A stretch of DNA of 64,000 bases from Nitrosopumilaceae archaeon (GCA_965214835.1 CBDCCK010000002.1:320001-384000); one strand, 5' to 3'; counted from the first letter of the stretch, positions 58,127 to 63,547 are shown. A program made the numbers and translations. The notes: generated by a model from the sequence alone, not told the origin.

Positions 58127-58318
58127 GTAGGAGTTTACCTCCTCCCAAAGACGCGATGCAGGTGGGCACGGTCATGAAAGACCCTGATCAACGGTAACGC
58201 CCAAGGGGTAGACTTGCGCGCTGGTGTAAGATTACCCCCTCCCCCCAAGCGACACTGCCAGCCGAGGCCGTCATGATCACACCTGCCACGTCGTATCTCA
58301 GAAGGGGCAAACTCTTAC
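58127..58318. mobile_element. Two adjacent GTAAGAG-family MITEs (58127-58217, 58226-58318)
   Basis: TIRs GTAGGAGTTTACC.../...GGGGCAAACTCTTAC; second copy is the reverse complement of 18088-18175. Confidence 0.8.
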
Positions 58319-58991
58319 GACTGCCCGTCCGGTTCTGTGTAAGATTGGTGACCTAGAATGCGGATATTCTCTGAATTGAGATTTTATTTTATGCCTAGAC
58401 AGAATACTTGCTTAGCGAGGCATTCTGGATGATGGTCTTCCACTTGTTGATGCCGTCCACGACAATCAAGGATGCCTCCGCAGGCGTCTTTCCCTCCAGG
58501 CTTCCGTGCTTTTTGGTGTAATTGTAGTAGACCCTCATTCCGTCAAGTATGGCCGTATCCATCTTCTTGAGGCCCCTGAACACCTTCTCGCGGTCTCTGA
58601 TCTCGCCGTTGAGCCTCTCCATCCTGTTGTTGTTGTCCCGGTCTCTTTTTCCTGCCAGGTGGATATGTCTTACGTGATTCGTACCCTTTCCGAATACCCT
58701 CCTTGAGGACTTGGCATATGCCGGCAGGCCGTCCGTGATGAAGTTTCTGGGGCTTTTTCCGGCATGTGATTTTGTCAGTTGTAATAGACTGTCCGCATTG
58801 TGCTGGAACTTGTTGTCTGCCAGGTCGGAGGCCAGCCAGTAGCGCGTATCGTCATCCATCGAGGCGAATAGATAGCACTGCCTGCCGCTGATTTTCACCC
58901 ATACCTCGTCGGCCCGGAACCAGCTGCCGACCCGTGGAACGATTCCGTTGAGGTATGTCGATGTCATCCTGGAATAGTCTCTAACCCAGTT

Positions 58992-60709
58992 AGACCTTAT
59001 GCGTAAACGAAATTAGCGGCGATGCCCCCGGCGCACGGGCTACAAATGAGGCAAGTCAGGGCCGGCGCACGCGCGACTGTACCTTACAACGTTGAAAATA
59101 TTTGATCAAAACCACAACTATTTTCAGACGATTGATTTAGATCCGGGATCCATTCTCGCATAAGAGTAATGGCAAAGTCCGAGACCGAGCAGATACGACT
59201 GCTGAAGAAGAGAATCGAGCAGTACGAGAAGGAGAAGGTACAGGACAGGAAGGAGAAGGCGCGGGACAAAAAGAAGATCAAGAAGTATGAGAAGAGGATC
59301 AAGAGGCACGAGAAGAAGAGCAGGCAGGACAGGAAGGAGAAGGCGCGGGACAGGACGGAGAGGATGCAGTACAGGAAGGAGATCAGAGAGTACGAGAAGA
59401 AGAGCAGGCAGGACGGCAGGAGGCAGGAGCGGGATCAGGAGAGGATAGGGCAGCTGGAACAGCAGCTGGACGCCGAGCGCCGGATGTGGCCCGCAACCTG
59501 GGATGACGACAGGCGCTCCGCGGACAACGCCGCCCTCATGCACAGGCTCGAGGTGCTCGATGACATAATCGGTGGCGGGTCCCTGCAGCCCACCACGTCG
59601 ATGAACCTCCGCCAGTTTGACTACATATATGACCGGTTTACGAAGCTTGCCAAAAAGCACACAGAAGGCCCCCTGTTCTCAGAAGACGAGGACAACTTGC
59701 CCGGAAACCGGTGCAAGCTGTCCTACCGCCACGCCCTGCTGATGTCGCTGATGCGCAAGTACGGAAACCCGACACAGGAGCAGCTTGCGGCATTCTTTGG
59801 CATAGACCAGAGCACCGTATGCAGGTACCTCAGGTATTGCGACATGATATTCACCAAGATACTGCCCACGCCGGACGCCGTATCGCGAAAGATACAAAAC
59901 GCCCGCACGATCAAGGAAGTCAAGAAGATCGTCCCGGATCTGACCGTGATTGTAGACGGCACGCACATCGACATACAGCGCCCCACAGACAAGGAGCCAA
60001 GAAAGGAGGCATACTCTGGCAAGAAGAAGAGCTTTACGCGCAACACCCAGGTGATTGCCGACAAGAAGGGACTGGCGATGTATGCAAGCAAGTCGGCGCC
60101 CGGAAGCACGCACGACCTCACCATGATAAAGAACAACCCACCGGATCTGGGAATCCTGACTGCCAGGATGCGCAGCAACAGAAAGCACCCCGAGGACGAG
60201 AAGGTAAAGATGTTCTCTGATCTGGGATACATGGGAATCGAGGAGGTGTATCCCGGGGCCACATCCGTGCAGCCCGACAAGAAGCCAAGGAAAGGCAAGC
60301 TTACAAAGAAACAGAAAGCGCAGAACAGGAGGATAAGCAGCAAGAGGGTGACAGTAGAGCACGCCATAGGACGGATAAAGCAGTACAAGCGGATGCGTGA
60401 TCCGTACGACGGGACCGCCGAGGAGTTCGACAGGGAGTTCCAGGTGACGGCCGGGCTTGCCAACTTTAGGCTGCTGTGGGACAAGCGGAACAAGAAGCTC
60501 ATGCATGGGTTCTGATACCACGATACGGAGCGCATTGCGGCGCCACACGATGCCGCACTATACTGTAGTTTTTACCAGCTGTAATGGCTCGTAGCTGCAC
60601 TATATACGGACTCTGCCGCCCTCATACACGTCATGTGATGCCGTCAGCCTTGCATGTATGGCCGGCCACCGTCGGAATATTTCGATCCGGTCGATTACGC
60701 ATAAGGTCT
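58992..60709 (+). mobile_element. IS5-superfamily (ISL2/DDE_Tnp_4-type) insertion sequence, intact
   Basis: 19-bp TIRs AGACCTTATGCGTAA(A/T)CGA; 3-bp TSD GTT. Confidence 0.93.
59169..60515 (+). CDS. IS5/ISL2-type transposase with charged coiled-coil N-terminus
   Basis: HTH LAAFFGIDQSTVCR, VDGT, YSGKKK, GSTHD, DLGY, RVTVEHAIGRIK. Confidence 0.92.
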   Translation: MAKSETEQIRLLKKRIEQYEKEKVQDRKEKARDKKKIKKYEKRIKRHEKKSRQDRKEKARDRTERMQYRKEIREYEKKSRQDGRRQERDQERIGQLEQQLDAERRMWPATWDDDRRSADNAALMHRLEVLDDIIGGGSLQPTTSMNLRQFDYIYDRFTKLAKKHTEGPLFSEDEDNLPGNRCKLSYRHALLMSLMRKYGNPTQEQLAAFFGIDQSTVCRYLRYCDMIFTKILPTPDAVSRKIQNARTIKEVKKIVPDLTVIVDGTHIDIQRPTDKEPRKEAYSGKKKSFTRNTQVIADKKGLAMYASKSAPGSTHDLTMIKNNPPDLGILTARMRSNRKHPEDEKVKMFSDLGYMGIEEVYPGATSVQPDKKPRKGKLTKKQKAQNRRISSKRVTVEHAIGRIKQYKRMRDPYDGTAEEFDREFQVTAGLANFRLLWDKRNKKLMHGF

Positions 60710-61278
60710 GTTGTATACCGTCTTGTGGCTTACACTGATTCCAAGCATCTCGTAATGGTTGGAGATGTCACGGACGCTCATCCCCGTATAATACATCTGC
60801 AACGCGCCCGTTATGATGGATTCGTCAAACCTCCTGTTTTCGAATCCAAAGTTTGCAGTAAACCTTCTCTTACAGTCTTTACACTTGAACATCTGCATTG
60901 TAGAGCTTTTGTTCTTCTTTAATCCCTTCCTGACGATGTTGCCAGAATCGCAGAACTTGCACAGGTTCAGCCTTGACCTTTCAATGATTCTAAACCCGTC
61001 GTGTCCGAACACGTTTCTTCTGACATACTCCAGTATTACCTTGATGTGCTTGCAGTCCGATTTTCTGCTCCGGTGGTCCGGACACTCACAGACAAGCCCG
61101 CTGCCCGTCCTAGATACGGTATAGAACTTGGATGGATCTGACTGGGATCTGACCCTGAAATCATTCGTACCAATGATCTGGGTGGCGTGACCCGGAGTCT
61201 CCATGATCTGTTTTGCACGTCGGTCTCTTGCGTTCATTCACATCCCTCCTCGAAAATTAATATAGAACAAAAAAGAAG

Positions 61279-61363
61279 CGGTGAGTGTGGGATTCGAACC
61301 CACGAAGGCTTTCCACCTTGCAGGTCATAAGCCTGCCACTCTAACCAACTAAGTGAACTCACC
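61279..61363 (-). tRNA. Class II (long variable arm) tRNA with UAU anticodon
   Basis: Acceptor GGTGAGT/ACTCACC plus G73; anticodon arm GCAGG-CTTATGA-CCTGC; variable arm AAGGT-GGAAA-GCCTT; T-arm GTGGG-TTCGAAT-CCCAC; upstream TATA-like box and downstream T-run. Confidence 0.85.
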
Positions 61364-61450
61364 ATGTATTAGATTAACAGTATGGTTATTTATTAGTTGT
61401 GGTTAACAGATCGGTTAAGATTTATATTAGCAACGTTGCTTCAAAACAAC

Positions 61451-61636
61451 ATGACACGCTACAAAAAGGACGCAAGGGAGTTTGATGTGAGCCTCACCAA
61501 AAGCAGGAACAGGGACGGATCTGAAAGCCTGATCTGCCGCGTACCGAGAATCATAGTAGAAACACTGGGCGAGCCAAACAGCCTGAAATTCCTTATCAAG
61601 AGCAAGAACATAGTTGTGACCGCAGGTGAGAAGTGA
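61451..61636 (+). CDS. AbrB/MazE-like small DNA-binding protein
   Basis: FDVSL...SLICRVPRIIVETLG...LKF....IVV swapped-hairpin pattern; divergent from tRNA/transposase. Confidence 0.65.
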   Translation: MTRYKKDAREFDVSLTKSRNRDGSESLICRVPRIIVETLGEPNSLKFLIKSKNIVVTAGEK

Positions 61637-61742
61637 TGTTACCGTACCATAAGGAAGCCAACAGTAGAGATTTTGGGCAATCCAAACCAACTCGTGTTCA
61701 AACTTGTAAAAAAGAAGGCAATCATAAAAGGTGTAATCTGAA
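61636..61742 (+). pseudogene. Degenerate second copy of the AbrB-like C-terminal half
   Basis: RTIRKPTVEILGNPNQLVFKLVKKKAII aligns with RVPRIIVETLGEPNSLKFLIKSKNIVV. Confidence 0.5.
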
Positions 61743-62532
61743 ATGAAAAAGTCCCTCCAACGGATATACAATACCGACTGTATGGATTTTATGAGTAGTT
61801 ATTCCGGTAAAAAATTCGATGTTATCGTCACATCCCCACCATACAACGTAAACAAGAAATACAACATCTATTTGGATAACCTGACCCTAGTAGACTACCT
61901 AAAGTGGGTGGAGTTGTGGGGGGGGGCTCTATGACCTACTTTCAGACAACGGATCATTTTTCCTAAACATAGGCTACACTGCTAAAAACCCGAACATACC
62001 GTTTGATGTCCAGCGCGTGCTGTCAAAGTACTTCAAGACGCAGAACATATTCCACTGGATAAAGTCAATATCAATACCTGAGTCAAACATATCCGTCGGA
62101 CATTTCAAGCCCATTAATACGCCACGTTTCGTAAACCAGTGCCATGAATTTGTGTTTCATTTCACCAAAAATGGTAACGTGCCTCTTGACAAACTGTCGA
62201 TAGGAGTTTCGTATGCAGATAAAAGTAACATAACGCGCTGGAACCACGGAAACACAAAACGTGACAGGGGAAACACGTGGTTCATACCATATGAGACAAA
62301 AAATGGGAATATGAGACATCCTTGTGAGTTTCCGGTCAAGCTCCCTGAAATGTGCATCATGCTACATGGCGTAAAAAACGACCTTTTTGTCTATGATCCG
62401 TTTATGGGAATCGGCTCCACGGCCATTGCGTGTAAAAGACTTGGTGTAAGGTGTGTCGGCACCGAGATAGATCCAGAGTATGTGGATGTTGCAAACCAAA
62501 GACTTGAAAACGAGGTGTTGATTTGTCAGTAG
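61743..62532 (+). CDS. Beta-class amino (N4-C/N6-A) DNA methyltransferase, +1 frameshift in G9 tract
   Basis: Motif IV TSPPY in 61743-61934; [14 protein letters not shown], motif [10 protein letters not shown] in the next frame; G9 at 61918-61926. Confidence 0.88.
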
Positions 62533-63074
62533 AGTTTCATAGTCTCATAAAGGACACATGCGATAAAACGGTACTGCAAACGCAAAAGAGCCATCCAATA
62601 CTGAAGATACTATCAAATGGTCTTAACATAATTCTACGAAAATCAAAATACACAAGGTATGAAGACAGGCGTATAAACGATTTAGGCAAGTCGTTGGAAC
62701 AGGAGATAAAGGACATAATAACACACGATAATGACATCAAGCTTATTCCATACAGTCAACACCTGGGTTATCCTGATCTACGTGTCCAAATACATGGTAA
62801 AGTCGTGTTTATTGAGATAAAGACAACGTCAAAAGAAGAAAATTTTGATTCAACTCAACGTGTGTTTTATTACACAAATGGCAACAAGATAAGCGACGAC
62901 GGATACCACCTACTCATACAGCTGTTCTTGGAAGCATCACCATCAAATCCAAATTCCTACATTTTCAAGAAGTGGAGGATAAGGGACCTGTATTCTCTAA
63001 GTGTAAGCCTAAAGCGAGAATACAATGCGAGCTATAGAGATTTAAACAACTTACCCGTATTGTGTGGTTCCTAG
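62523..63074 (+). CDS. Putative type II restriction endonuclease (PD-(D/E)xK)
   Basis: GYPDL...FIEIKT catalytic motif; overlaps the MTase stop; AT-rich. Confidence 0.75.
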
Positions 63075-63075
63075 A

Positions 63076-63267
63076 ATGGAATGTAACAACCGCTGTGAAA
63101 AATTCAGAAAAGCTAGGAGATACAACACACAGGATTCCAAATACTGTGTTAATTGTGACATCTTTCTAGAAACCAAAAACAACCGCTGTCCTTGTTGCAA
63201 CAATCAATTGCGAACCGGGCCGGCAAACTCAAAAAACAGAAAAAACCACCGTAAAAAATCCGAATAA
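63076..63267 (+). CDS. Small Cys-rich Zn-finger protein
   Basis: C...C, YCVNC, RCPCC..QLRT with basic tail. Confidence 0.7.
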   Translation: MECNNRCEKFRKARRYNTQDSKYCVNCDIFLETKNNRCPCCNNQLRTGPANSKNRKNHRKKSE

Positions 63268-63547
63268 ATGGCGCTGTCCAGCCACAAAAATTCATCTCAA
63301 AGATCTACACCCTAGGTGCCTAAAACTACACAAAACAGCCCGAAAGGTCAGATTGCCCAGGTATTCCTGATCCAAGCAAAATTCCATATCACCAAGATTG
63401 CACAGAACCGCCCGTCCTATACTTTTAATATGAGATATGAGAATACTAAGCAGGTGGGTAAAGTCTGTTGAGCAATCAATAGGATCTTGACCGAAACAAT
63501 GACGTCTGTTCGGACAGATAGGAAGGAGTAGGTCAAGAGTCACCATT

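Follow-up and report, generated by a model that had tools for sequence, protein, structure and literature searches.

The locus described here raises the question of whether a single transposase of the IS6 type can move a tRNA gene and a restriction-modification (R-M) system between its own ends in an archaeon. The window, by which we mean the whole stretch of 64,000 nucleotides from a Nitrosopumilaceae archaeon (GCA_965214835.1 CBDCCK010000002.1:320001-384000), contains at positions 58331-63409 a segment that a first-pass annotation, made from the sequence alone, had proposed to be a unit (transporter-type) IS6 transposon carrying defence cargo and an RNA gene. This proposal is supported by a family of related units with ends, target duplications and R-M cargo, and we estimate at about 85% the probability that the segment is a decayed unit transposon, or transporter insertion sequence (IS), of an IS6-family clade that is widespread in the Nitrosopumilaceae. 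Within the unit's own ends and duplication there are, in fact, a methyltransferase, a nuclease, a tRNA, small open reading frames (ORFs) and one IS6-type transposase, which is the arrangement that defines a transporter IS.

The unit measures 5,079 bp and its two GGTTCTGTG-type ends are alike at 23 of 29 positions when one of them is reverse-complemented. Both ends begin GGTTCTGTG and show the GG start, the G at position 7 and the CTGT core by which IS6-family ends are recognised, and both are directly abutted by GCCCGTCC, a target-site duplication (TSD) of 8 bp as is typical of that family. Every coordinate previously given for the inverted repeats, the duplication and the unit was verified by direct read, and removal of a nested 1,718-bp insertion together with one GTT copy leaves 3,358 bp, in agreement with the earlier estimate of ~3.36 kb. 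Both junctions of the unit are also bridged, with zero differences, by contigs from public runs of two studies (X1 and X3). The first 30 nt of the near end are identical to both ends of two units found in another genome (L031 and L032), and the far end has an exact solo copy of 29 nt at C2:254530-254558 (positions with the prefix C2 belong to the genome studied here).

An inverted repeat by itself is weak evidence and not decisive. The region is full of nested repeats, and a comparable inverted pair, 30 nt at 77% and due to chance, is found nearby in the same 6.5 kb, both of which are points in favour of ends and an 8-bp repeat that arose by chance around genes that are mere neighbours; of all the explanations considered in this study, however, this is the one to which we give the least credit. 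More than chance is indicated by the family of tips spread over the genome, by a test on paired flanks and by unbroken paralogous targets, and the same architecture is found in other genomes. The tip GGTTCTGTG[CT]AA recurs genome-wide, with 92 matches listed at no more than one mismatch, some of which are expected by chance. When the flanking 8-mers of 73 oppositely oriented end pairs, lying 100-60,000 bp apart in this genome, were compared, exact flanks were observed twice, in the unit described here and in a 12,107-bp segment, against about 0.001 expected, and flanks with one mismatch (7/8) were observed twice against about 0.03 expected. Furthermore, the target element has three paralogous copies elsewhere in the genome that run uninterrupted as ...GACTGCCCATGCTTATACTTTTAATAT..., which is what remains of GACTGCCCGTCC / unit / GCCCGTCC TATACTTTTAATAT once the unit and one GCCCGTCC are taken away. 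The whole unit inserts as a single piece, with an 8-bp target duplication.

The claim that the unit holds one IS6-type transposase proved correct, as tblastn identified a sole such gene, split in two, between 58331 and 63409. Its C-terminal part matches Pfam DDE_Tnp_IS240 well above threshold (E 5.3e-15, 56.2 bits versus a cut-off of 27) and is collinear with residues 177-374 of P0001, an intact paralogue of 374 aa from the same genome; the N-terminal piece aligns to residues 1-176, and the C-terminal piece resumes from a duplicated Asn codon. Excision of the insertion and of one GTT rejoins the two pieces in frame, and the uninterrupted form, with 58988 joined to 60710, is present in contigs of runs X3 and X7. 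P0001 itself reaches 53.6 bits with DDE_Tnp_IS240 (cut-off 27), the IS6 model covers its residues 132-334, and its zinc ribbon gives a weak match, 23 bits and below the cut-off of 28, to the NCBIfam IS1/IS1595 zinc domain. A 67% identical protein of Nitrosopumilus ureiphilus carries the NCBI label "IS6 family transposase", and the transposase clade comprises 2,983 protein clusters at E up to 1e-10. The "SWIM" label attached to this transposase in the past could not be confirmed, as there was no Pfam SWIM match at E up to 0.1 for what had been a CxCx10CxH motif read by eye. The insertion that splits the gene is of the IS5 type, with inverted ends of 19 nt (95%) and matches to Pfam DDE_Tnp_4 (1.7e-27) and HTH_Tnp_4, and it has 16 further full-length copies in the genome at 99% identity or more, plus diverged or partial ones. 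With its transposase interrupted by the IS5-type element and its methyltransferase put out of frame by a run of nine G, the unit in the window is a disabled, inert copy of a single-transposase cargo unit.

A search with P0001 returned 67 loci in one-genome-per-species contigs, nearly all from Nitrosopumilaceae plus one from Methanoperedens, and we examined ends and duplications at the 34 loci of other genomes that had full-length transposase matches. The end beside the transposase stop codon could be located in 24 of the 34. A far end with an exact (8/8) duplication was seen at 13 of these 24 at first pass, and a looser search of the 18 loci with neither an exact nor a near-exact TSD added three more (L036, L073 and L074), for a total of 16 out of 34; near-exact duplications were present at L038 (7/8) and at L060 and L071, where the flanks match after a one-base shift, and of the 24 loci four had a candidate far end with unlike flanks and three had no far end. 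In the 16 loci with exact duplications, 488-5,828 bp separate the transposase start codon from the far end upstream of it, which is never closer, and the shortest distances, 488 bp in L036 and 699 bp in L041, still enclose a small ORF; homologues consistently bounded immediately upstream of the transposase and devoid of cargo, the pattern that the first-pass annotation considered incompatible with its proposal, are therefore not what we found. These related units range from 1,855 to 7,034 bp. A scan of 59 of the 70 ORFs of the 16 units (11 short or overlapping ones were omitted by eye) and of 11 of the 17 ORFs of three more revealed restriction or modification domains in 14 of the 19 delimited units: PF01555 methyltransferases with BglII-, CfrBI- or HNH-type nucleases, a D12 methylase with HNH, MmeI/Eco57I-type fused enzymes, GmrSD, and Mrr. 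The five units without such domains are L036, L041, L046, L053 (NurA) and L074. Taken with the 11 loci that have a tRNA gene, the homologue search that had been suggested thus did recover the same end type with variable R-M and tRNA cargo in related archaea.

The genome studied here holds another unit of this kind (c1445, or L003, at C2:1442525-1446554), 4,030 bp long, with ends that match at 30 of 34 positions and an Mrr-type nuclease as cargo (105.5 bits), and the other full-length paralogues in the genome, c656, c680, c2980 and c2947, showed no near end upstream, nor a far end, within 6 kb. A 21-bp tandem repeat forms long arrays between transposase and cargo in the c1445 unit and in L032 (5024-5425). 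Two larger segments are bounded by the same end family, one of 12,107 bp (C2:2069498-2081604) with the exact 8-bp duplication GATGTGGA and one of 18,321 bp (C2:1616485-1634805) with a 7/8 duplication; neither holds an intact IS6-type transposase, both contain ordinary genes and other ISs, and they may be large units moved in trans. At C2:2989300-2990032 there is, in addition, a deletion derivative of 733 bp in which a 110-bp far end is joined to the last 588 bp of a near end, a non-autonomous form of the same element family that resembles a miniature inverted-repeat transposable element (MITE).

The 16 units of other genomes that have their cargo inside exact duplications also speak against a different history of the locus, in which a short IS6-type element inserted first and the 2.1 kb of cargo entered later, or in which the unit is the remnant of a two-copy composite with one copy decayed to its last 110 bp, so that the cargo never travelled under this transposase. 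Such a history would be in keeping with the outer and inner end-like copies that lie in tandem at the far end, with the AT-rich cargo (about 40% GC versus about 50% in the transposase), with a truncated second copy of the small ORF that would mark a recombination joint, and with the failure of searches to find a second copy of the cargo. We consider it improbable nonetheless, as ends nearer than 488 bp to the start codon are absent from all close homologues, L060 keeps the gene order at a transposase identity of 47%, the cargo is framed neither by an internal duplication nor by further ends, and replacement of the far part with the duplication kept would need homology outside the element. An IS26-type pseudo-compound transposon was likewise rejected: there is a single split transposase, and the far side has only about 110 bp of end sequence.

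The inner end-like copy lies ~71 nt inside the far end, in the same orientation, and resembles the near end and its subterminal region. Window positions 63300-63409 align at 81-82% to two segments, C2:847626-847733 and C2:2989301-2989408, in both of which the inner copy is easily recognised, and tandem end-like copies in the same orientation, 71-78 nt apart, are seen in L031 (5855-5960), in the window (63308-63409) and at C2:847626-847733. The inner copy may be a second binding site for the transposase or the trace of an older end.

Returning to the reading of the segment as a unit transposon, comparison with L031, which comes from another species, gives a clear indication of how its content changes. 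L031 is 98.1% identical to the window over 684 nt (the tRNA and the 5' half of the transposase) and 99.85% identical over 661 nt (the near end with the 3' half of the transposase). Homology to the window ends near 61393, beyond which L031 has a different methyltransferase and an HNH nuclease; its two ends are both of type A (30/30). L032, whose core is 94.7-97% identical to the window, has a third cargo, made of GmrSD and an EcoRI-type methylase. Because the host flanks of L031 and L032 are, repeats excepted, only 66-79% identical to this genome, such a near-identical core must have moved recently between lineages, with its cargo replaced since: cargo is exchanged, and the element moves from one lineage to another. 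The architecture is also old, given that L060, in spite of its 47% identical transposase, retains the same order of small ORF, methyltransferase, nuclease, zinc-finger ORF and far end. The near end of the unit in the window is of type A and its far end of type B, which, together with the truncated copy of the small ORF, is read as the mark of a recombinant formed before insertion. The earlier account of the unit is corrected accordingly to a chimera of two element types with ends of different sub-types.

The general plan of the clade comprises, at one end, a DDE transposase of ~370 aa that is extended N-terminally by zinc fingers, a conserved small ORF divergent from it, a class-II tRNA between the two in one sub-clade, and 0.5-5.8 kb of exchangeable cargo, mostly R-M systems, up to a far GG-type end. 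The transposase would bind the two outermost ends and the unit would move by the IS6 pathway, that is, through a replicative cointegrate and its subsequent resolution, and cargo might be exchanged through recombination within the small ORF or close to it, or through an alternative far end. The copy in the window probably began as a chimera in which a type-A core was joined to a type-B cargo end, and which would then have inserted beside a small repeated element upstream of rpl30e; a later IS5-type insertion into the transposase disabled it, and the methyltransferase is now out of frame at its G9 run.

We acknowledge that a number of observations weigh against this interpretation. The two tandem end-like copies at the far end mean that the present form could descend from a nested or composite arrangement, and the ends match at 23 of 29 positions only, in the vicinity of the chance inverted pair mentioned above. 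The best family for the transposase is NCBIfam transpos_IS6, over the full profile, yet its score of 115.6 bits falls below the cut-off of 125. Among the 34 homologue loci, 18 are without an exact duplication, three of them being near-exact; L033, L054 and L065 have good ends with unlike flanks, and other loci have no detectable ends. Transposition is unobserved, and blastn and tblastn found no other copy of this cargo in the genome or in the 67 related loci, save for distant methyltransferases and the zinc-finger ORF of L060. No empty-site or excision joint was present among the joints listed for four runs, where reads were compared as contigs, so that any rare variant would escape notice. 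Harmer and Hall (2019, PMC6807381) argued, in the parts of their article available to us, that the IS6/IS26 family is a poor fit for archaeal elements and for long ones with zinc fingers, and that these lack experimental data, because of which the cointegrate pathway is here an extrapolation.

The features of the unit and of its surroundings are collected in Table 1.

Table 1. Features of the unit, its flanks and related G/C runs (window positions unless a locus or contig is named; aa, amino acids)
Feature	Position	Strand	Basis or remark
MITE-like repeat, ~100 nt, ends GTAAGAGTTTACCCC / GGGGTAAACTCTTAC	~58215-58317		
TSD, left copy, GCCCGTCC	58323-58330	.	Direct read; identical to 63410-63417
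Near inverted end, type A, starts GGTTCTGTGTAAGATTGGTGACCTAGAAT	58331-58359	+	Beside 3' end of transposase gene
Transposase, C-terminal part, DDE catalytic domain	58395-58991	-	Pfam DDE_Tnp_IS240
Nested IS5-type insertion, 1,718 bp	58992-60709	+	Transposase ORF 59169-60515; 3-bp duplication GTT
Transposase, N-terminal part	60710-61237	-	ORF; CxCx10CxH motif, second four-Cys zinc ribbon, helix-turn-helix
Class-II tRNA gene, 86 nt, long variable arm, anticodon UAU, discriminator G	61278-61363	-	ARAGORN; Rfam
Small conserved ORF, 61 aa (first called AbrB-like)	61451-61636	+	Divergent from transposase; hidden Markov model
Truncated second copy of small ORF, C-terminal half, no start codon	61637-61738	+	Same model, E 3.8e-4
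Beta-class N4/N6 DNA methyltransferase, two ORFs by frameshift	61743-62532	+	PF01555
G/C run in methyltransferase, window	61918-61926		
G/C run in methyltransferase, L031	6378-6387		
G/C run in methyltransferase, L045	7048-7058		
G/C run in methyltransferase	C2:2719026-2719035		
G/C run in methyltransferase	C2:2805681-2805691		
Putative type II restriction endonuclease, 183 aa	62523-63074	+	Start overlaps methyltransferase stop
Small Cys-rich (zinc-ribbon-like) ORF, 63 aa	63076-63267	+	Adjoins far end
Degenerate inner end-like copy	63308-63339	-	Direct read
Far inverted end, type B, GGTTCTGTGCAATCTTGGTGATATGGAAT	63381-63409	-	Inverted-repeat search and direct read
TSD, right copy, GCCCGTCC	63410-63417	.	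Direct read
129-nt repeated element	63418-63546		Right flank
Rfam DUF3800-X RNA match	63452-63545	+	52.2 bits, threshold 38.2

With regard to the cargo, the gene that the first-pass annotation had called AbrB-like is a real and conserved ORF, as a hidden Markov model built from six copies detects it in 14 loci, the window included, on the upstream side of the transposase (E 1e-14 to 1e-32), but its affinity to AbrB could not be confirmed. It has no Pfam match, and its AlphaFold model (predicted local distance difference test 81.8) has AbrB as top Foldseek match at a non-significant level (E = 1.2, TM = 0.41). L040, L060 and L071 have a MazE/AbrB-positive small ORF in that position instead, and hhalign gives a probability of 3% for a relationship between these and the small ORF of the window. 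The truncated copy that follows it (Table 1) is read, from its sequence, as a recombination scar.

The proposed pair of methyltransferase and endonuclease fared unevenly. The methyltransferase is well recognised, though frameshifted, with 96.5 bits for PF01555; its C-terminal part matches N6_N4_Mtase at 2.9e-27 and its N-terminal part at 1.4e-5. The frameshift sits in the nine-G run, where a contig of run X3 (61317-63497) shows no indel and the contigs of X1 break within the run. For the putative endonuclease the indications are a set of language-model look-alikes in the ESM Atlas, of the MjaV family (score 0.96, 28 of 30 matches), and a PD...EIK motif read by eye; it had no match in Pfam, NCBIfam or PDB sequences. 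The zinc-finger gene is a genuine ORF, 49% identical (E 2e-20) to the ORF that takes its position in L060, a unit with a transposase only 47% identical to that of the window.

G/C runs of 9-11 nucleotides are found inside the methyltransferase genes of several units (Table 1), and in two cases the gene is out of frame. Genome-wide, the number of G/C runs does not decrease steadily with length (34 runs of 8, 13 of 9, 20 of 10, 21 of 11 and 11 of 12), a distribution that can be likened to that of phase-variable contingency loci in bacteria. A run of at least nine is present in 3 of 18 PF01555-like methyltransferase loci, with four runs versus 0.56 expected, and this enrichment of poly-G tracts in methyltransferases is suggestive, not settled.

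The tRNA gene in the unit is confirmed by ARAGORN and by Rfam (RF00005, 59.6 bits versus a threshold of 29), and is anomalous in its long variable arm, its G discriminator and its UAU anticodon. In 11 loci the transposase gene has a class-II tRNA gene as its neighbour, either ~40 nt upstream, as in the window (40 nt from the start codon), L030 and L031 (all UAU), c2806 (GAA), and L033 and L037 (CAG), or just downstream, as in L039 and L034 (UAA), L074 (AUC), L077 (UUC) and L067 (ACG), and these tRNAs have one common body with differing anticodons. In ten element-linked copies the cloverleaf shows compensatory changes at 21 of 27 pairs, and nine of the ten have the discriminator G. With a covariance model derived from five copies, 24 matches were obtained across 77 sources, and the best matches of the model outside the elements in this genome are serine tRNAs (80 and 74 bits), leucine tRNAs reaching at most 51 bits; the anticodons of the element tRNAs are those of amino acids other than serine. 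Two further odd class-II tRNA-like genes are present at C2:148333-148419 and C2:702318-702406; one has a CCU anticodon, and the other is a paralogue of the tRNA in the window, with flanks in common and a 6-nt anticodon loop.

The last 28-33 nt of the tRNA recur at C2:702379-702406 and also, next to different flanks, in contigs (with loose ends at 61278 and at 61304-61310), as happens at attachment sites, and could thus point to a tRNA-targeting island of the integrase type whose inverted ends are incidental. We find this very hard to accept, given that a Pfam scan of the ORFs of the unit detected neither an integrase nor a recombinase domain, that the tRNA is complete and internal rather than at an edge, in the same internal position in six elements, and that the duplication abuts the inverted ends and not the tRNA.

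Seryl-tRNA synthetase recognises its substrates by the long arm and G73 and disregards the anticodon, and serine charging of the element tRNAs is therefore conceivable. Alternatively, the tRNA in the window may help read AUA, which makes up 25 of the 41 Ile codons of the cargo, the corresponding figures being 9 of 39 for the ribosomal-protein genes nearby and 3 of 22 for the transposase. It is tempting to speculate that the element tRNAs are working adaptors that change the reading of sense codons, either as mobile missense tRNAs charged with serine or as a decoding supply for AT-rich cargo, and that, with the poly-G tracts of their methyltransferases, the units are self-mobile and switchable defence modules that tamper with translation; on balance, we regard this as rather unlikely.

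The unit is inserted at the edge of the 129-nt repeated element that forms its right flank. The DUF3800-X match (Table 1) lies 43 nt outside the right duplication, and the repeat that contains it has three more copies in this genome and copies in the relative G002. On the left, the MITE-like repeat, which has at least 19 matches in the genome (G000), stops 5 nt before the target site of the unit, and a related copy lies just upstream. On a larger scale, ~25 kb of mobile, repeat-rich DNA (C2:378116-402981, window 58116 onward) separate rpl30e from the next gene conserved in the relatives G001 and G004, where the corresponding gap is ~0.86 kb; synteny resumes at C2:402981, and this gap on the rpl30e side, beside the ribosomal and RNA-polymerase operon, looks like an insertion hot spot. 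The first-pass annotation had held that relatives with the R-M and tRNA genes at this locus, but without inverted repeats or transposase, would speak against a transposon, and G001 and G004 do not have those genes at the rpl30e locus. The empty site that it had suggested looking for upstream of rpl30e was obtained in part: none that is precise to the base was found in G001, G002 or G004, which share only the rpl30e side with the window (up to ~58119), and because the whole ~25-kb island is absent from G001 and G004 no such site is to be had there, but unbroken paralogous targets are present in the same genome, as described above.

Other known systems share parts of this arrangement. Unit transposons of the Tn3 family have one transposase, terminal inverted repeats and passenger genes inside, and replicative movement through cointegrates is thought to be common to them and to the units described here. 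Membership in the Tn3 family was nevertheless rejected, as no resolvase, res site or Tn3 transposase domain was found among the nine ORFs scanned and the duplication is of 8 bp instead of 5 bp; the transposase belongs, in fact, to another family, and the units here are much smaller. In bacteria, R-M genes are linked to transposon-like structures and behave as selfish modules that move horizontally. The difference is that here one dedicated transposase clade serves unrelated R-M types (type II, IIG, GmrSD and Mrr) in ammonia-oxidising archaea.

The closest likeness is to the IS6 family (IS26, IS257), with which the unit shares an IS240/IS6-type DDE transposase, GG ends with G7 and the CTGT core, and the 8-bp duplication, and, within that family, to a long clostridial clade (clade h or VII, e.g. 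ISCpe7) that has an N-terminal zinc-finger extension, as far as the available parts of two articles describe them (PMC7986276, PMC6807381). According to the same parts, however, described members are 0.7-1.76 kb long, have a single ORF and carry cargo only as two-copy pseudo-compound transposons, whereas the units here are of 1.9-7 kb, with one transposase and several genes inside their own ends of 29-34 nt. Even at 3,358 bp, with five genes besides the transposase, the unit in the window does not have the form of a simple IS (~0.7-1.8 kb, with the transposase as sole ORF). The only IS6-family transporter IS with a passenger gene named in the sections available from the 2021 review (Varani, PMC7986276) is ISDsp3, which likewise has that gene inside its ends, but is a single-copy, bacterial element of 1.45 kb with one hypothetical passenger gene; in contrast to it, the archaeal clade has a multi-gene, exchangeable and mostly R-M cargo, a conserved small ORF and, in part, a tRNA. 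The most fitting place for the element is inside the IS6 family or beside it, as a variant that carries cargo.

In the portions available, Krupovic et al. (2019, PMC6563490) described thaumarchaeal ISs as one- or two-gene elements and cargo-bearing DNA transposons as undetected in archaea, a 2026 survey (PMC13343696) placed the top archaeal IS load in a Nitrosopumilus genome and made no mention of cargo, and a study of sponge-holobiont microbiomes (PMC11410982) had nothing bearing on IS6-type cargo units. The element was not recognised as a described one in the first-pass annotation, and in the full-text literature, ISfinder and paper supplements aside, which might name relatives, we also found no description of archaeal IS6-type units with R-M or tRNA cargo.

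In a family known to move cargo only as two-copy composites, one clade here carries whole defence systems between its own ends. Such units represent a vehicle for the spread and turnover of R-M systems in ammonia-oxidising archaea, recent transfer between lineages included, and these organisms matter for the global nitrogen cycle. Because the cultured Nitrosopumilus ureiphilus encodes the 67% identical transposase mentioned above, the element can be tested at the bench, and compact natural sets of ends and transposase could be tried as genetic tools for hosts that have almost none. The odd tRNAs embedded in these units raise a separate question, that of codon reading by mobile elements.

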